Positions 11,588 through 19,525 are shown, numbered from the stretch's first letter. The stretch: DNA of 64,000 nt from Crocinitomicaceae bacterium (GCA_002709305.1 PAQM01000012.1:90701-154700), one strand, 5' to 3'. Notes: generated from the sequence alone by a model not told the origin. Numbers and translations are program-made.

Positions 11588-11842
11588 ATGAAAAAAGTTT
11601 TTTTAATACTCTCTTTATTTTGTTTTATAGGAACATCTAGTTTTGCTTCAGTTGAAGTTAACACAAATGTTCAAACTGAATTAAATAAAGATGACGACAG
11701 AAAAAAGAAGAAAAAGAAAAAATGTAAAAAATCAGCTTGTTCCAAAGACACTAAGTCAAATTGTAGTGACACTAAAGCTGAAACTAAAAGCTCTTGCTCT
11801 TCTGCAACAACAAAAAAGTCTTGTTGTTCAAAGAAAAAATAA
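11588..11842 (+). CDS. Small exported Lys/Ser/Cys-rich protein of unknown function
   Basis: Signal peptide 'MKKVFLILSLFCFIGTSSFA'. The mature ~63 aa carries a K7 run and 8 Cys (CKKSAC, NC, SC, SCC). A hairpin terminator follows. Confidence 0.6.
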   Translation: MKKVFLILSLFCFIGTSSFASVEVNTNVQTELNKDDDRKKKKKKKCKKSACSKDTKSNCSDTKAETKSSCSSATTKKSCCSKKK

Positions 11843-12676: not shown

Positions 12677-12706
12677 AAAAAAGAGTCTAATAAATAGACT
12701 CTTTTT
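12677..12706 (-). terminator. Rho-independent terminator closing the seven-gene exported-protein operon
   Basis: On the minus strand: GAGTCTA-TTTAT-TAGACTC followed by TTTTTTATTTTTTT, about 27 nt after the stop of 12733-13230. Confidence 0.7.
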
Positions 12707-12732: not shown

Positions 12733-13230
12733 TTATCTCATTATACCATCTTTAAGTAACTTCTTTTTTAATTCACTACGAAGTACTCTTATAACTACAC
12801 CATGTGTAACACTCTGTGAACCTCTTTTTCTACTTCTCCAAACCTTGGCAAAAAATATTCTTTCATCCTTAAGATTAACAAAGTTTAGATATGGTCCTTC
12901 GTCAACAAAAAATTTATTGAAATAGTCACTATACTTATCTAATGCATTTGGTTCAGAAATTAATGGTCTTCTATCACACTCATCTCTTCCATAACTTATA
13001 CCTTTAAAAATAACATCTCGAATACCATTTTTCTTTGCTTGTTCAACAGCATCCCATCGATGTCTTCCATTACCCCATGCTTTAAGTGTTAAAGACCCAT
13101 CAAGTTCAGTACCATAACATTCAGTATTATACTCGAAATTACCTGCTACCTTATTTTGAGAGCCACAAGAAAAAAATAAGGGACTTAAAAATAATAGGGA
13201 CAATACTGAGTAATATTTCATTTTTTTCAT
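12733..13230 (-). CDS. Exported lipoprotein of unknown function (module 2, divergent third copy of the ~145-aa domain)
   Basis: Lipobox 'LSPLFFSC|GSQ'. It shares 'EQAKKN..IFKG', 'FF', 'Y.NFVNL' and 'LRSELKKKL' blocks with 13257-13760 and 17593-18129. Confidence 0.85.
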   Translation of the reverse strand: MKKMKYYSVLSLLFLSPLFFSCGSQNKVAGNFEYNTECYGTELDGSLTLKAWGNGRHRWDAVEQAKKNGIRDVIFKGISYGRDECDRRPLISEPNALDKYSDYFNKFFVDEGPYLNFVNLKDERIFFAKVWRSRKRGSQSVTHGVVIRVLRSELKKKLLKDGIMR

Positions 13231-13256
13231 AACTATAAATTTATATTAAATTAAAA

Positions 13257-13760
13257 CTAAAAACCATTGGATAAACCTTTTATAACTCCAGCTGATTCTA
13301 AATATTTTCTTAATGCTGCTACTTGGACTGAAACAACAACACCCACCTTATATTCTCTACCAATTTTTATTCTATCACCAGGGAGAATAGTACCATCAGT
13401 AGTTAAACTAACAAATTGCATATATCTACCATTTTTCCCAAAAAACTGATCAAAAAAAGATTTTTGTTGCTCATCTAAAATAGGATTCCTTGCTAATGGT
13501 GGTTGTCCTATTACACCTTTACTGGATGGATAACCCTTAAATATTATACCATGTACAGCATTTTTTTTAGTTTGCTCAAGAGCTATTCTTGGCTTTTTTG
13601 AATATTGCCATGACTTAACTAAATAAGTACCCATAGAACCTTGACCAACACCTTCTATTTCATACCTCCAATTTCTAGTATCCTTATTAGCTTTTTTTCT
13701 AGTCTGAGAAAAAGATGAAAAAGTAAAAATCAAAAAAAGTGGAAGAATAAAATGTTTCAT
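13257..13760 (-). CDS. Exported protein of unknown function (module 2 copy of the ~145-aa domain)
   Basis: Signal peptide '...FSSFSQ|TRKK'. By eye it is about 50% identical to 17593-18129 (WRYEIE, KKNAVHGIIFKG, DRIKI, LRKYLE.AG, C-terminal GLSNGF). Confidence 0.88.
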   Translation of the reverse strand: MKHFILPLFLIFTFSSFSQTRKKANKDTRNWRYEIEGVGQGSMGTYLVKSWQYSKKPRIALEQTKKNAVHGIIFKGYPSSKGVIGQPPLARNPILDEQQKSFFDQFFGKNGRYMQFVSLTTDGTILPGDRIKIGREYKVGVVVSVQVAALRKYLESAGVIKGLSNGF

Positions 13761-13777
13761 ATATTAAAAATAAATAT

Positions 13778-15547
13778 TTATATGTGAATTCTTAAGGAAA
13801 TAGTATTAATAAAATTAAAACGTGATCTTTTTATATCCTCTCCCATTTCACTAATTGTCCTAAATTCAGATTCAGATTCATCGTCATCATCATTTGCATT
13901 ACTTTCCCATGCAGCAATATTAACTCCTATAGAAGGTTTATAAAAAATTGATACACTAGGTACAATATGAAAGCCTAAACCAATACCAAATCTAGTATCA
14001 ACAATTACAGGAGATGGTTCATACTCCTCGTCTTCAAAATCTTGATCTTCGCCATCCTTATTTGAAAAAGATAAAAATCCAGCATTAACTGAAAAATTAG
14101 GATAAAGAAAAAGATTCCCTCTTTTTGTTAAATAAATTGCTCTTGCAAATTCTAAACCAACCAATAATGAATATCCATCAGGGGAAATTGTAACTCTTGT
14201 CGCTGTATCAGCATCATAATTTCCACCATAATTATATACATAATTTAAATCTTGAAAGGTAGATGCCCCTATAGACAAACCTACATAGGCTGCACTTCTT
14301 TTTCCAAAGGGACCAAATCCAATAGACAAACTATAAGAACTTAGATTTAAGGGGGCTGTACTAAGATTATAATTAAAATCGAAATTAATTTTTTTATCTA
14401 ACTCTTCATAAATCATCATTCCGTTATATAATGAACGACCACCTCTCTGTAAAAAATTTGATGCTAGAGAATTATCTTTTTCATTATTTACTACTGAATT
14501 CACATATAATACCCCCTTTCTTCTTAATAGTGTTTCACCATCTCTTTTTTGAATTTTTTCGTAAGCAAAATACCTATCGTTATTTCTAATTCCTTCTTTA
14601 GTTCCAATTTTAGATTTACATGGATATGTAGAAGATAAAACATTAAATATTTTAAATTCAGGTACATTTTGTACGATTGATTTATTAGTTTGATTAATAA
14701 TTCCAAGGGGCAAAGATGAAGTTAAAATTTTATTCATTTGCTCTTGAGTTGGTTCTATAAATCTTCCATTGCGTTTTGATTTTGACTTGCCAACTGATAC
14801 ATCTAATTGTAATTCTTCCCATACAACTTTTGAAGATAATTGTAGATTAGAAAAATTATCGATTTTTTTTACTCTCTCACTCTCTGGAGTATTTTCATCA
14901 ATCCAGCAATTTGTATAAAAATAGTTCAACATTTCAGGTGTCCAATTAACCTGCCTTAATTTAAAACCAAAATCACATAAATAGCCATATAATTTTCTTT
15001 CTATAGGTTTTTGATTTGATTCAGAAACCTCACCACCTAACTTTCTAGTTCTTTCGTTTCGTGCTTTTCTTTTTGCTTCCTTTCTATCGTAATAATCCTT
15101 ATATGTTTCAACCTTCTTTAAATCTATAGTCAAAATATAAACTTTACCTAACATCTCAGTAGCAATCTGAGTAAGAATTTGATCTTTATCTGCAGAATTA
15201 TTACTTATGAATGATTGAACGTCAGAGGATGCATATTCTGAAAATTCTAAAATTTTTCTAACATTAAATAGGTTATTTGAATCTTTATTAAAAAGATATG
15301 ATGTTATATCTTTAGCATATTCTGAAAAAATAGTATCTGATGCTATCGGTTTTTTAATTGGAATTATGTTTACCCTCTTTAATGTATTTTTAAAATTGAG
15401 TGTTGCTATCGAATTATTTATAACTTGAAAAAAGTTACCCTCTTTTTCAATGGTAGAAATTGACATACAAGGTCTAACATAAGTGCTAATTTGACTTTTA
15501 CTAGACCAAGATAAAATCAAAAAAAATAAAAAAATATAATACTTCAT
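13778..15547 (-). CDS. Exported protein of unknown function with an outer-membrane beta-barrel-like C-terminal third (module 2 large subunit)
   Basis: Signal peptide '...SWSSKSQ|IST'. The C-terminal ~200 aa has alternating hydrophobic strands (YSLSIGFGPF, RFGIGLGFHIV, FNFINTISLRIHI) and acidic loops. It shares motifs with 18141-19466. Confidence 0.85.
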   Translation of the reverse strand: MKYYIFLFFLILSWSSKSQISTYVRPCMSISTIEKEGNFFQVINNSIATLNFKNTLKRVNIIPIKKPIASDTIFSEYAKDITSYLFNKDSNNLFNVRKILEFSEYASSDVQSFISNNSADKDQILTQIATEMLGKVYILTIDLKKVETYKDYYDRKEAKRKARNERTRKLGGEVSESNQKPIERKLYGYLCDFGFKLRQVNWTPEMLNYFYTNCWIDENTPESERVKKIDNFSNLQLSSKVVWEELQLDVSVGKSKSKRNGRFIEPTQEQMNKILTSSLPLGIINQTNKSIVQNVPEFKIFNVLSSTYPCKSKIGTKEGIRNNDRYFAYEKIQKRDGETLLRRKGVLYVNSVVNNEKDNSLASNFLQRGGRSLYNGMMIYEELDKKINFDFNYNLSTAPLNLSSYSLSIGFGPFGKRSAAYVGLSIGASTFQDLNYVYNYGGNYDADTATRVTISPDGYSLLVGLEFARAIYLTKRGNLFLYPNFSVNAGFLSFSNKDGEDQDFEDEEYEPSPVIVDTRFGIGLGFHIVPSVSIFYKPSIGVNIAAWESNANDDDDESESEFRTISEMGEDIKRSRFNFINTISLRIHI

Positions 15548-15565
15548 TTCATTTTCTTATTTATT

Positions 15566-15601
15566 AAAAAACGGTTATCTATAAATAGACAACCGTTTTT
15601 T
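15566..15601 (-). terminator. Intra-operon hairpin with U-run (partial terminator, attenuator or RNA-processing site) between modules 1 and 2
   Basis: On the minus strand: AAAAAACGGTTGTCTA-TTTA-TAGATAACCGTTTTTT. The 12-bp stem includes one G-U pair that exists only on this strand, and T6 follows. Confidence 0.6.
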
Positions 15602-15619
15602 AAAAATTAATTTAATTTT

Positions 15620-16594
15620 TTACCACCAACCGACAGTATTATATGTAACATTTATATCTGGTTGATTGTTTCCATATGCTACTCCTATATCTCTAGCAGC
15701 TTTTATAGTGGCTTTTTGAATATTAACATCATCCTGTTGTTGTTTCAATTTAAAATCCCACTCACGCTTATCTAATTGTTTAATTCTAGTAGCTATCATA
15801 GAAGTAAGTTTCTTTGCATCACCAAAACATGAAGCGTTTGGATCTATTTCTGCAAGATAAGCGCTAGCATTTTTTGCTGCATCTGCATCTTGACCAGCAC
15901 TCCAAGCATTTTTTGCTTCGGCTAATTTACTTTTACATTCACGATCAATTTGTTTTTGATAAATTGGTGCTACTGCATCCATACACTTATCATAACATTC
16001 CTTACATACATCCGGCACAGAAGTCAATTTAAGAATTGCTTCTTCAAATTTATTTTGTCCTTCTAAAGTTTTTGCTTCTTTAATGAAGAAATCACATTGA
16101 GCATTATAGAATTCTATAATTTTCTCTTTACCCTCAGTAATAAGATCTTTCAAAGCAGGGTTTTTTGGATTTAATCTTTTTAAAGCAGCGATATATGCCT
16201 TATTCTCATTTTGACCAACTCCCTTAACCTGCATTGATGAATTAGCAAATAATTTTCCGTCTAATCCATCACCAATATAAAAAGTAACTTCCAAAGTTAA
16301 TGCATGCATTGGAGGTGCAGTAGGTGTTATATCTTTTGTTAAAACAGTTATGTTTGGAGTCAAAATAAATCTAGGATTTAAAGAACTCCCACCCATACCA
16401 TTTGCAGATGTAATCTGTGATAACTTATTAAGCAACATTCTTTTTGCATGAGAAGGAATTGCTTCTGCTTGAGGTGCTATATATGAATTAAGAACAATTC
16501 TTCCTAAATCATCTGACTTACCTTTCTTATTTTGTGCATTTACATTAGAAAATATAAATCCAACAAATAAAAGTGAAAATATTAATTTATACAT
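15620..16594 (-). CDS. Exported protein of unknown function (module 1), with a Cys-rich helical C-terminal half
   Basis: Signal peptide '...FSNVNAQ|NKKG'. Six Cys in the C-terminal half (CDFF, CKECYDKC, EC, SC). Ala/Lys-rich helices. C-terminus '...TVGWW'. Confidence 0.85.
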   Translation of the reverse strand: MYKLIFSLLFVGFIFSNVNAQNKKGKSDDLGRIVLNSYIAPQAEAIPSHAKRMLLNKLSQITSANGMGGSSLNPRFILTPNITVLTKDITPTAPPMHALTLEVTFYIGDGLDGKLFANSSMQVKGVGQNENKAYIAALKRLNPKNPALKDLITEGKEKIIEFYNAQCDFFIKEAKTLEGQNKFEEAILKLTSVPDVCKECYDKCMDAVAPIYQKQIDRECKSKLAEAKNAWSAGQDADAAKNASAYLAEIDPNASCFGDAKKLTSMIATRIKQLDKREWDFKLKQQQDDVNIQKATIKAARDIGVAYGNNQPDINVTYNTVGWW

Positions 16595-16611
16595 ATCTTT
16601 TTTATTTATTA

Positions 16612-17574
16612 TTATTTACCACCAAGGTATATAGTAGCTCTACCTAAACCTTTAGTTGTTACTTTACTAATAATTTCGAATTCATCCTTTAAATACTTAC
16701 TAAGATTTTTAGCAAAACGTCTTGTATCCATAGCTCTTTGCTTTCCGTTTCTTTCGTAATATAAAGGAATTCTTACTTGTTCAAACAACATCATGTTTTC
16801 TGTTGCATCTGTAGTATTAAATCGACCTTGAACAGTGTTATCTGCCATCCAATCTTCGATTAGAACACCTAGTTCTTCTTCATCATCACCATACTCTGTC
16901 TCTAAATCCTCATACCAATCGTCCCATTTTTTAATTCGAACTATTACTTCTCTACCATTAGCAAATAAATCTTCAAAATGAGTCATTAATAATGCATTAA
17001 AATTATCGATATGAGCTAGTACTGCTTCCTCTAATAATACTGCTAAAGTAGCTGAAAATGATGAGGGTCCAGTTCCTGTTGCACCTGCAATTTGTTTGTC
17101 TGTATATGCATCAATACCTTCTAAAATAAAAGTAACTGATTTTTCTGGTCCATTTTGGTTAACAGTCCAAGACATACCTATTATTATATCTGCTTTTGCT
17201 ACAGCCTTTAATTTATCAATTGGACTTTCACTAGCTCCCATTCCAGAATCTTTAGATGACATCATAGCATCTTCCGCACTATTTGATTCCAATGTCTTAA
17301 TAGCTTGTTCCATCAATTTTAGTGGGAAACCTCTTTCTGCCATCATATTACCAATAGTGGTAATAACTAATTTTAAGTCAGCATTTTCTTGAAAAGCTTG
17401 TTTATAATTAGGGATTTTCATTTTTGTTCCCTGATTATCAAACTCCATCATAAAACCATTTTGATTACACCAATTATCACTTGGCACAACCATTATAGTT
17501 GGTTTTTTTGCTTGAGAAAAAGCAACTAAACTAAAAACTAAGAAACCTAAAACTAAAAATATATTCTTTTTCAT
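16612..17574 (-). CDS. Exported protein of unknown function (module 1), acidic (possibly DUF6175-like; from memory only)
   Basis: Signal peptide '...LVAFSQ|AKKP'. Acidic stretch 'WDDWYEDLETEYGDDEEELGVLIEDW'. No catalytic motif recognised. Confidence 0.85.
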   Translation of the reverse strand: MKKNIFLVLGFLVFSLVAFSQAKKPTIMVVPSDNWCNQNGFMMEFDNQGTKMKIPNYKQAFQENADLKLVITTIGNMMAERGFPLKLMEQAIKTLESNSAEDAMMSSKDSGMGASESPIDKLKAVAKADIIIGMSWTVNQNGPEKSVTFILEGIDAYTDKQIAGATGTGPSSFSATLAVLLEEAVLAHIDNFNALLMTHFEDLFANGREVIVRIKKWDDWYEDLETEYGDDEEELGVLIEDWMADNTVQGRFNTTDATENMMLFEQVRIPLYYERNGKQRAMDTRRFAKNLSKYLKDEFEIISKVTTKGLGRATIYLGGK

Positions 17575-17592
17575 AATTTAAATTTTTATTAA

Positions 17593-18129
17593 TTAAAAAC
17601 CATCTGATAAGCCTCTAACAATACCAGCTTTTTCGAGGTATTTTCTTAGTTCAGACTTATTTACTGATACAACAATACCTATCTTATATTCCTTTTTACT
17701 AATCTTGATTCTATCTTGAGGAGCAATTTGTCCATTATTGGCTAATGTTACAAATTTCATATAATCTCCTCCACCTGTCTTGAAGAACTCTTCAAAAAAA
17801 TCTTTGTTTTGCTCATCTATATTTGGATTAGTAGCTATAGGCTTTTGACCTTTAACATCTCCTTTATCTGGAAATCCTTTAAATATGATTCCATGAACTG
17901 CATTTTTCTTTGCTTGTTCCATAGCAGTCTCTACATTTCGAGAATAAGACCATACTTTAACTTGATAAGTACCAGAAACACCTGTTGCTACAGCCTCAAG
18001 TTCATAACGCCAAGCTACTGTTTCTTTATCTGCTTTTTTCTTTCCTCTCTGAGCATTAGCATTGAAAGTAAAAGAGAGAAAAGCAAGTAGCACTATGCTA
18101 CCTGCTTTAAATATATTAGTAATATTCAT
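17593..18129 (-). CDS. Exported protein of unknown function (module 1 copy of the ~145-aa domain)
   Basis: Signal peptide '...FTFNANAQ|RGKK'. Paralog of 13257-13760 and ends in GLSDGF. Confidence 0.88.
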   Translation of the reverse strand: MNITNIFKAGSIVLLAFLSFTFNANAQRGKKKADKETVAWRYELEAVATGVSGTYQVKVWSYSRNVETAMEQAKKNAVHGIIFKGFPDKGDVKGQKPIATNPNIDEQNKDFFEEFFKTGGGDYMKFVTLANNGQIAPQDRIKISKKEYKIGIVVSVNKSELRKYLEKAGIVRGLSDGF

Positions 18130-18140
18130 ATTCTTTTAGT

Positions 18141-19466
18141 TTATTTTAATTGCTTTAATAACATTCCAACTTGAATCTTTTTAGATCCTTTAAATTGTGA
18201 AGCACTAATTGGATTTCCTTCTGCATCCGTTGCAACTTCACCATCAGGACCATTACCTGCATTGTATCTATTATCCCAAATTGGGGCTTTCTTATCAACA
18301 CTACATTTTCCTACTGACTTCCATGTTGTTGTTCCTGCTTTTTCATCCCAAGTCATTTCTAATACTTCGAATTTATCACCAGGTGAAATCCCTTCTTTCA
18401 TACCTATTTTAGCCATTATTGGGCCTGTTGAAGAAACTGGAATTTTTGGTTTAAATACATCATTTTGTTTTTGAAGTTTAGCGAACGCATTATCAATGTT
18501 ACGAACAGTTGCCTTATCAATTATGTTTTCAAGATCCTTTCCACCAAGGACAATACTTGTATTATATTGATTACCTACAAACTCTAAACTAAAAGCATCA
18601 GAAGCAAGTATGTCACTAGTAATATCTTCGCTATTATACATTTTATAAACTGCATCAAGCTCTACTTCAGACCATTTTAATTTATACAACCAAGTCTTTG
18701 AAACTAAAGAATATCCTTCCTTAGCTTTTTCATAGGCTAACTCTGCAGCTTTTATTGCAGCCTGTTGTTGCATAGGTGTTTTCAACTCCCCTGCTGCAAC
18801 TTTAGCAGCCTCTAGTATTAGTTTTGCTGCAGGCTCATTTTCAAAATAATTAAGTTTTGTAAAAGTTACAAATGTGTTCTGAATTAATTCTTTCCCTGCA
18901 TCCATGATAGAAGCTGAACTCATAACATTACCTGATGCAATACTAGCACTCATCTCAGAAGCATTGTACATACCTCTTTCAGCAACTAAATCCATTGAAA
19001 ATTTACCATCTTTTACAAACCATGATGCAACAAGTTGGTTAACAATTTTTTGATCTTTAATTATTTTATCAATTTTCATTTGATATTTCTGCTTTTCTGA
19101 TGGTAATTCAAATGCTAAAGTTTTTTCATCATTTAAATATCTAACAGGTCTAATAGCTTCAGCTTTAGTTATTTGGAGAACATTGCTTAATGTATCTTTA
19201 AGAAATCCAGCAGCTTTTAAATCTTCATCTGTTAATTTTATCCCATCTATATCAATAGATTTTGAACTGATGTCGTGCTGATTATACTTATCTGGAAAAG
19301 GATAGTTATTCCAAGATTTCATAACATAATCTTTTTGTGGAAAATTATCTGATTCCAATAAAATCATAGAAAGAGAACTTCTACGATACTTCATCTCGTC
19401 TGTTTGCGCGAACAAATTCATTGTTCCTAGTAGACATACTAGCATTAAAATAGTTGTTTTTTTCAT
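18141..19466 (-). CDS. Exported protein of unknown function (module 1 large subunit)
   Basis: The ATG at 19466 gives a classic signal peptide 'MKKTTILMLVCLLGTMNLFAQ|TDE'; the ORF-track TTG at 19520 is rejected. It shares 'KIG.KEGI' and 'FKL...W..E.L...Y' motifs with 13778-15547. Confidence 0.85.
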   Translation of the reverse strand: MKKTTILMLVCLLGTMNLFAQTDEMKYRRSSLSMILLESDNFPQKDYVMKSWNNYPFPDKYNQHDISSKSIDIDGIKLTDEDLKAAGFLKDTLSNVLQITKAEAIRPVRYLNDEKTLAFELPSEKQKYQMKIDKIIKDQKIVNQLVASWFVKDGKFSMDLVAERGMYNASEMSASIASGNVMSSASIMDAGKELIQNTFVTFTKLNYFENEPAAKLILEAAKVAAGELKTPMQQQAAIKAAELAYEKAKEGYSLVSKTWLYKLKWSEVELDAVYKMYNSEDITSDILASDAFSLEFVGNQYNTSIVLGGKDLENIIDKATVRNIDNAFAKLQKQNDVFKPKIPVSSTGPIMAKIGMKEGISPGDKFEVLEMTWDEKAGTTTWKSVGKCSVDKKAPIWDNRYNAGNGPDGEVATDAEGNPISASQFKGSKKIQVGMLLKQLK

Positions 19467-19517
19467 TGTTGTGTAATTAGTTAGAATTAAGCCATTTATA
19501 AATTTTAAATGGGAGGA

Positions 19518-19525
19518 CAAATTTA
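19518..19525 (-). promoter_or_regulatory. Candidate -7 promoter element (TAAATTTG) for the seven-gene operon
   Basis: Exact TAnnTTTG on the minus strand about 50 nt upstream of the ATG at 19466, inside the 100-nt gap after the lptF/G-family gene. Confidence 0.45.

Follow-up and report, generated by a model that had tools for sequence, protein, structure and literature searches.

A Cassette of Exported Proteins Widespread in Bacteroidota, Possibly an Outer-Membrane-Associated Complex

Introduction

Bacteroidota dominate gut and marine particle niches, and the machines of their cell envelope, including the type IX secretion system (T9SS), SusCD, gliding and type V pili, have repeatedly proved phylum-specific. 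The described systems closest to the locus considered here involve a group of outer-membrane lipoproteins that share one alpha/beta core and form octameric (PqiC), nonameric (CsgG) or dodecameric (PelC) rings or, in the case of LptE, a plug in a barrel (PMC13631591; Journal of Biological Chemistry, JBC, 2026). In this article, we describe a block of seven minus-strand genes for exported proteins in a 64,000-nucleotide (nt) stretch of DNA, hereafter the window, from a marine Crocinitomicaceae metagenome-assembled genome (MAG; GCA_002709305.1, PAQM01000012.1:90701-154700), in which all seven products were deposited as "hypothetical." An initial annotation of the window, made from the sequence alone, had read the block as a seven-gene operon for a dedicated assembly of several proteins in the periplasm, in the outer membrane or on the surface, and not for a metabolic pathway.

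We find that the block is built from four protein families, A, B, C and D, whose genes stand in the same order in every locus that we retrieved from other Bacteroidota, and that the model of C matches the fold of the ring- and plug-forming lipoproteins above. The reading toward which we lean, with slightly less than even confidence, is that the cassette encodes an uncharacterised ring/plug-plus-barrel complex, widespread in Bacteroidota and associated with the outer membrane, at or within it.

A Four-Family Cassette

The genes are named g1 to g7 in order of transcription and are laid out as follows (aa, amino acids; ORF, open reading frame; SPI, signal peptidase I):

18141-19466, minus strand: g1, family A, 441 aa; ORF with an SPI signal peptide and Gln at +1
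17593-18129, minus strand: g2, family B, 178 aa; ORF with an SPI signal peptide
16612-17574, minus strand: g3, family C, Pfam DUF6175, 320 aa; ORF with an SPI signal peptide, not a lipoprotein
15620-16594, minus strand: g4, family D, 324 aa; ORF, supported by the alignment of D homologues
13778-15547, minus strand: g5, whole gene, 589 aa; ORF with an SPI signal peptide
14411-15328, minus strand: g5 residues 74-379, divergent family-A domain (A'), placed by a family-A profile match
13781-14401, minus strand: g5 residues 383-589, C-terminal extension with alternating hydrophobic strands, placed by sequence pattern
13257-13760, minus strand: g6, family B, 167 aa; ORF with an SPI signal peptide, matched by profile B at an E-value (E) of 5e-61
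12733-13230, minus strand: g7, family B', 165 aa; lipobox LFFSC and the cysteine pair of family B

Successive intergenic gaps from g1 to g7 measure 11, 18, 17, 72, 17 and 26 nt, and every coordinate and gap length in the initial annotation was reproduced. Against a relative with 69-92% protein identity, the ratio of nonsynonymous to synonymous substitution rates (dN/dS) was 0.06-0.19 for all seven genes; because this indicates purifying selection on each of them, the seven ORFs are regarded as real genes. The B proteins g2, g6 and g7 are paralogues with pairwise identities of 56% (g2-g6), 32% (g2-g7) and 28%, and g5 is a divergent paralogue of g1, the family-A profile matching g5 residues 74-379 over profile positions 109-412 of 416 (E 9e-22) and g5 itself matching many g1 homologues at E-values down to 1e-19. 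When A, B, C, D and their sub-domains were compared profile to profile, signal peptides were all that aligned. The block is best read as a complete ABCD cassette (g1-g4) followed by a partial second unit, A'-B-B' (g5-g7), so that the description as a seven-gene operon holds for the seven closely packed genes and gives way, as to their unity, to a four-gene core with a partial duplicate behind a hairpin (see below).

Conservation Across Bacteroidota

Species were scanned with one genome each, and the species count is a lower bound; the locus analysis covered 80 fetched loci, in which the taxon labels of MAGs may be wrong. Relatives of the cassette were found in at least 565 Bacteroidota species, and DUF6175 comprises at least 7,999 clusters at 90% identity. 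The order A-B-(B')-C-D, on one strand, was found in all 80 loci, of which 37 were of the type ABB'CD and 32 of the type ABCD, the rest being cut by contig ends or carrying extra copies of A or B. Homologues of C in Flavobacteriia, Bacteroidia, Saprospiria, Chitinophagia and Cytophagia are 59-79% identical to g3, an unusual degree of conservation for an exported protein without an assigned function; for A, B and D, identities to the window proteins range over 30-59%, 42-60% and 36-61%, respectively. Given an order kept in 80 of 80 loci and the purifying selection described above, the arrangement is far beyond chance.

The surroundings of the cassette are not conserved. No flanking gene family was present in more than 19 of the 80 loci, and those that recur are lineage-specific. 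Candidates for conserved neighbours, namely histidine kinases, a B12-type ATP-binding cassette (ABC) transporter, an S41 peptidase and RmuC, were rejected, as they recur within lineages only; a link to lptF/G was likewise set aside, since only in this window do these genes adjoin the cassette. In close relatives of the window organism, the seven genes are all present but lie in another genomic neighbourhood. The random juxtaposition that a neighbourhood analysis could have revealed is thus not borne out, the genes co-occurring in fixed order between unrelated flanks.

No copy of the cassette was found among plasmids or IMG/VR viral contigs. The tree of C mostly follows taxonomy, with a few exceptions, and the cassette thus appears to be an ancient Bacteroidota module passed on mainly by vertical descent, and no mobile island. 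A reading as a mobile element was considered and rejected in view of the missing plasmid and IMG/VR matches, the single "phage" match being an unverified 9-kb faecal contig. That contig (L086; GenBank MT836698.1, "UNVERIFIED: Bacteriophage sp.," human faeces; 9 kb, guanine-cytosine content 40.6%) carries a full A-B-B-C-D and is probably from a gut Bacteroidales organism and mislabelled as phage. On another contig, from a "Chlorobiota bacterium" MAG (L025; JAADHG010000278.1), the DUF6175 protein nests within the Flavobacteriaceae ABCD clade, and this contig is either mis-binned or the product of horizontal transfer.

Predicted Folds of C and A

AlphaFold2 models were made for g3 (C) and g1 (A) and compared by Foldseek with the Protein Data Bank (PDB) and, for A, also with BFVD. 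The model of C (predicted local distance difference test, pLDDT, 84.9; predicted template modelling score, pTM, 0.76) has an N-terminal alpha/beta domain at about residues 27-206 and a second alpha/beta domain at residues 208-320. Its best structural match is Neisseria GNA1162 (4hrv; E 7e-4), and others are CsgG (4uv2), PelC (5t0z, 5t11, 9h80), LpoB (4q6l, 4q6z), XCC0632/DUF330 (2iqi), and FlgT and the flagellar LPHT ring (3w1e, 8z5n). Overall, these matches span E-values from 7e-4 to 2e-2 and Foldseek probabilities of 0.69-1.0 (0.9-1.0 for GNA1162, CsgG, PelC, LpoB and FlgT; about 0.7-0.96 for XCC0632), with template modelling scores (TM-scores) normalised to the target of 0.46-0.61 for GNA1162 and PelC. 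By its model, then, C matches the alpha/beta core common to PqiC, LptE, PelC, CsgG, LpoB and FlgT, and a nearly identical list of structural matches was obtained for a PqiC-like protein (PMC13631591). Within C, the segment at g3 residues of about 100-120 (window about 17215-17277) forms a loop, SAEDAMMSSKDxGxxASESPID, that is nearly invariant across classes and modelled at a pLDDT of only about 47-61; one possibility is that it mediates an interaction or forms a constriction and takes on order only once the complex has assembled.

The model of A (pLDDT 79.4, pTM 0.76) combines an alpha/beta core of three to four long strands and helical hairpins with a small C-terminal beta-barrel. No match at E<=0.001 was found for it in the PDB or BFVD. 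Foldseek matches of A to TraT, CsgG and MACPF-type proteins were treated as non-evidence; for TraT (9fs5, 9e2v), they stand at E of about 0.07, probability <=0.2 and TM-scores of 0.09-0.16. The structural comparison that the initial annotation had recommended has therefore yielded a fold match for C and nothing at this threshold for A.

Families A, B and D in Sequence Libraries

Scans of the seven proteins against Pfam, NCBIfam, PADLOC and PHROGs gave nothing significant except DUF6175 (PF19672) in g3, which is matched over the entire profile (positions 1-293 of 293) at 411 bits, against a cut-off of 23, and E 2.9e-123. Neither catalytic or nucleotide-binding domains nor the T9SS C-terminal Por_Secre_tail/CTD (C-terminal domain) were found in the seven proteins with Pfam and NCBIfam; CTD proteins in the loci of relatives are encoded only in unrelated flanking genes. 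PADLOC, whose models cover known anti-phage defence systems, returned only one spurious 30-residue match (E 0.0095). Single sequences and family profiles, searched against all PDB sequences, retrieved nothing credible, and a literature search found nothing on DUF6175 or on the cassette. The initial annotation had recognised no catalytic, nucleotide-binding or T9SS-CTD signature in any member, which holds, and had regarded the block as one without an assignable function, which needs correction for g3, a DUF6175 protein; profile matches placing all members in a characterised system, which would have spoken against its reading, were not found, DUF6175 being the sole Pfam match.

The homologues of family A form 1303 clusters, all named "hypothetical" and none with Pfam domains. 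Several Flavobacteriaceae loci (L016, L024, L045, L051, L053, L059, L067, L076) encode family-A proteins of 735-927 aa, and those in L016, L024, L045 and L053 have an extra N-terminal region with sub-threshold matches to DUF2846 (E 1e-6 to 5e-4). Family B comprises 1273 clusters at 50% identity in a HMMER search with the three B paralogues of the window. It has no Pfam or PDB relatives, and 65 homologues scanned one by one against Pfam gave a recurrent HTH_CodY-like C-terminal motif that we rate as noise. Family D is likewise without Pfam or PDB relatives, 37 homologues having been scanned one by one against Pfam; weak tetratricopeptide repeat (TPR) and armadillo (ARM) matches in some of them are rated as noise. 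In g4 itself, an N-terminal domain is followed by a helical, weakly TPR-like C-terminal domain, with a conserved C-terminal GWW.

Export Signals, Gene Fusions and Conserved Cysteines

Signal peptides were called by sequence rules (basic N-terminus, hydrophobic core and cleavage-site pattern). All seven proteins have a basic start followed by a hydrophobic core, and the lipobox LFFSC is present in g7, as the initial annotation had claimed. The pattern is mirrored in homologues, with a hydrophobic core in 73 of 81 A, all 76 B, 45 of 47 B', all 80 C and all 79 D sequences. Each of the six SPI proteins has Gln directly after a small residue (A|Q or S|Q); this Gln hardly varies in families A, C and D, and every family keeps signal peptides with Gln at +1. 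This agrees with the Q-rule of Bacteroidetes, under which Gln occupies +1 of the cleavage site (PMC5837995, PMC10653852). In keeping with that rule and the -3/-1 rule, the six sites are probably cut before Gln rather than after it; the SPI signals reported initially are thus present, with cleavage probably placed one residue too far. Lipobox-like motifs were detected in 25 of 47 homologues of B' but in only 2 of 80 of C, and g3 and its homologues read ...FSQAKKPT at the cleavage region, with no Cys.

Several features tie the exported proteins to one another. In six of the 1273 family-B clusters, B is fused to C, there is no internal signal peptide, and the B domain runs directly into the N-terminus of mature DUF6175 (...K-P-(S/T)-I-M-V...); two further clusters are B'-B tandem fusions. 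An apparent A-B fusion ORF (L060:7770-9530) was rejected, the retained signal peptide of B pointing to a probable lost stop codon or assembly error. The two cysteine columns of family B co-vary perfectly (both in 55 sequences, neither in 10, one alone in none), for which reason a disulfide is predicted, and family D retains Cys167, Cys200, Cys220 and Cys256, each in 35-37 of 37 sequences. The conserved cysteines of B and D are expected to form disulfides. Together, the cysteines and the B-C fusions argue for proteins that work in an oxidising compartment, with B physically linked to C. The view of the initial annotation that the block encodes a dedicated periplasmic, outer-membrane or surface assembly and no metabolic pathway is accordingly supported from several sides: the fixed order in at least 565 species, the B-C fusions, the cysteines of B and D, the PqiC/PelC/CsgG-like fold of C and the lack of enzymatic domains.

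A Second Unit and Putative Barrel Partners of the Cassette

Beyond the four-gene core, three signals frame or divide the block:

19518-19525, minus strand: match to the -7 promoter motif, TAAATTTG, read from the sequence itself; putative promoter
15564-15603, minus strand: terminator-like 18-bp hairpin and U-run in the g4-g5 gap, from folding against shuffles
12678-12706, minus strand: intrinsic-terminator-like hairpin and T-run after g7, from a terminator scan and the sequence

The hairpin in the 72-nt gap between g4 and g5 is a perfect 18-bp stem ending in a U-run, with a folding energy of -20.9 kcal/mol (z -5.75; equalled by none of 200 shuffles). It is kept in three relatives, where a C-to-T change preserves pairing as G-U. 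Because this terminator-like element is conserved, the block may not be one uniform transcript, and because only about 22 nt lie between the hairpin and the ATG of g5, expression of g5-g7 probably relies on partial read-through or on a promoter within g4. Compared with the relative L081, g5 and g6 show a synonymous divergence of 0.26-0.37, against 0.8-1.3 for g1-g4 and g7; the low values suggest that part of the second unit was recently recombined or exchanged.

Relatives of g5 are all close ones, plus one protein at 34% identity (P0289). This protein occupies the A position in an A'-B-B-C-D cassette and has a C-terminus, ...SLRIQF, like that of an outer-membrane protein. The tail of g5 (about 205 residues) looks barrel-like, and we infer that it is an outer-membrane beta-barrel. 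In locus L084 (JGI Ga0633382_0001046), an A'-B-B-C-D cassette lies amid many ORFs of 41-84 aa and a DUF6943 gene. A different arrangement is seen in Vicingaceae-type loci (L013, L014, L020, L027, L047, L055, L057, L068, L080 and related ones), where a gene for a DUF3575-like outer-membrane barrel directly follows D (14 loci) and an exported, Lys-rich helical protein of 150 aa is encoded 7-90 nt upstream of A (9 loci). Barrel-like partners thus appear to be recruited in various ways, as the g5 tail, as P0289 with its terminal F and as the DUF3575-like gene.

The putative promoter, TAAATTTG, fits the Bacteroidota -7 motif TAnnTTTG and lies 52 nt 5' of the ATG of g1 (19466); no clear -33 TTG was seen upstream of it. 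This motif, placed about 50 nt before the first ATG by the initial annotation, the hairpin and U-run after the last stop (12706-12678) and the housekeeping flanks (TGT, LptF/LptG and an exonuclease-III-type nuclease) were all recovered, CdsA being a further flanking gene. Elsewhere in the window, at 11588-11842 on the plus strand, an 84-aa ORF encodes a signal peptide followed by a low-complexity tail rich in Lys, Cys, Ser and Thr (KKKKKKKCKKSACSKD…CCSKKK), for which no Pfam match was found.

A Proposed Complex and Its Rivals

In the ring/plug-plus-barrel complex that we tentatively propose, C would, like PelC, PqiC and CsgG, be the ring or plug on the underside of the outer membrane. It would be bound by B and B', of which lipidated B' (g7 here) would serve as the membrane anchor. 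The small C-terminal barrel of A and the disulfide-stabilised helical domain of D would let these two proteins act as scaffold or adaptor subunits, while the membrane-spanning part would be a beta-barrel, supplied by the g5 tail here and by the separate DUF3575-like gene in Vicingaceae-type loci. The cassette is without an inner-membrane or ATP-using component, and any translocation would for that reason be passive, as in curli or PelBC, or else the role would be structural. In this window the core unit consists of g1-g4, and g5-g7 make up a second, partly duplicated one, whose expression level probably differs owing to read-through of the hairpin. That the cassette is, more specifically, a previously unrecognised, energy-independent ring-plus-barrel translocon or surface-anchoring device, with A, B and D as new folds or families and a cargo foreign to current models of the Bacteroidota envelope, is a possibility that we consider doubtful.

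Several points weigh against the proposed complex. The structural matches of C have modest E-values and concern its N-terminal domain only; C has no lipobox, unlike most members of the fold class, and one of those members, LpoB, is a monomeric regulator rather than a ring. Families A, B and D are without a recognisable fold or family. No barrel gene stands beside the cassette in about 65 of 80 loci. The putative barrel nature of the g5 tail is read from its sequence pattern: this region had no match in Pfam and no profile similarity to the DUF3575-like neighbours (5% probability in hhalign). Finally, the neighbourhoods of the cassette offer no substrate or genomic partner that would hint at a cargo.

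The foremost alternative is a periplasmic structural or regulatory complex that translocates nothing, such as a tether between outer membrane and peptidoglycan, a stiffening scaffold or an LpoB-like regulator of peptidoglycan synthases. We consider this unlikely, even though C has its fold in common with LpoB, the N-domain of TolB and FlgT, which are regulators or scaffolds and not channels, most loci are without a barrel gene beside the cassette, and the conservation of C across classes would suit a protein with many fixed contacts. Against it stand the absence of any OmpA, LysM, SPOR or penicillin-binding protein (PBP)-related domain in Pfam and NCBIfam searches and the repeated recruitment of barrels in some lineages; the spread over at least 565 species, if patchy, would also oppose a housekeeping role.

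A curli-like system, in which A, C and D would export and assemble B proteins that are secreted or polymerise, is improbable in our estimation. It would account for the one to three B paralogues per locus, reminiscent of CsgA/CsgB, for the CsgG-like core in C and for the lack of any component that needs energy. It sits poorly with a B that is conserved, globular, held by a predicted disulfide and free of amyloid-type repeats, that is fused to C in six clusters and of which about half of the B' forms are lipoproteins; C, moreover, lacks the lipid anchor of CsgG, and transmembrane hairpins are not evident in its model.

Bacteroidota lipoproteins are exported to the surface by a signal of acidic residues after the Cys, and without these residues surface exposure is not predicted. 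The g7 protein has no acidic residues directly after its Cys and is predicted not to be surface-exposed, one of the reasons why we hold a surface-protection or exclusion device, TraT-like or acting as a barrier to phages or predators, to be highly improbable. The best, non-significant matches of A are indeed to the decameric TraT lipoprotein and to CsgG (E 0.07-0.09), but at probability <=0.2 and TM-scores of about 0.1-0.16; PADLOC, plasmids and IMG/VR contigs gave no match, and the C tree mostly tracks taxonomy, unlike mobile defence islands. That unrelated exported proteins lie side by side by chance, for which nothing speaks beyond the lack of functional annotation, is refuted by the gene order, constant in 80 of 80 loci whose flanks are unrelated, by the gene fusions and by the shared paralogy.

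The cassette, of whose four families three are missing from both Pfam and the PDB, is a well-defined target for deletion and structural work that could extend models of the Bacteroidota outer membrane by a new component. Should it prove to be a routine scaffold, DUF6175 would still gain a fold, partners and a cellular compartment.

Comparison With Known Systems

We rate the cassette as lying outside every known kind of system, because it resembles the PelBC, CsgG, PqiC and LptDE class of outer-membrane devices in one fold only, C having no lipid anchor and the partner families and synthase, MCE or flagellar genes of the named systems being missing, because a literature search found no description of it and because three of its four families are outside Pfam; "new" here means uncharacterised and unassignable, with no new mechanism demonstrated. 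As to TraT, the fold match of g1 is insignificant, and g1 has an SPI signal where TraT has a lipobox. Vibrio FlgT (3w1e, 8z5n) is matched by the fold of C over about 298 aligned columns (E 1.6e-3), and one A homologue has a faint FlgT_C match (E 0.097); there is, however, no significant sequence match, no flagellar genes were seen in the fetched loci, and Bacteroidota are not known to have flagella.

Neisseria GNA1162 (DUF799), the best structural match of C, is encoded together with a CsgG-like lipoprotein and a DUF4810 protein, and so resembles the cassette in belonging to a small operon of exported proteins. It differs in being a single-domain lipoprotein with other partner families and no sequence similarity to C. 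PqiC, XCC0632 (DUF330) and LptE, ring or plug lipoproteins of the Pqi and Lpt systems for envelope transport, share the fold class of C (2iqi, 4kwy; PMC13631591) and act with a tube or barrel at the inner face of the outer membrane, whereas the cassette is without MCE, LptD or other partner genes and C is not a lipoprotein.

Curli provide a further parallel. C has a CsgG-like core (4uv2, 4uv3, 6l7a; E 1e-3, probability 0.93-1.0), and in both systems every component is exported, none uses ATP and small paralogous proteins take part. C is nonetheless without a lipobox or evident transmembrane hairpins in its model, the B proteins of the cassette are globular and sometimes fused to C, and no Pfam or NCBIfam match to CsgG, CsgE, CsgF or curlin repeats was found in the seven proteins or 65 B homologues.

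The cassette differs from PelB-PelC in that C is unlipidated and carries a second domain, that D and the barrel are encoded separately and show no PelB homology, and that A and B have no Pel counterpart; no sequence match to Pel export genes was found, and the flanks of the 80 loci hold no conserved glycosyltransferase or synthase genes. Even so, the N-terminal domain of C superposes on PelC (5t0z, 5t11, 9h80) with probabilities of 0.93-1.0 and TM-scores of 0.47-0.61, and the cassette recalls that system in its parts, combining a PelC-like protein with the TPR-like helical D and, in some loci, with a beta-barrel.

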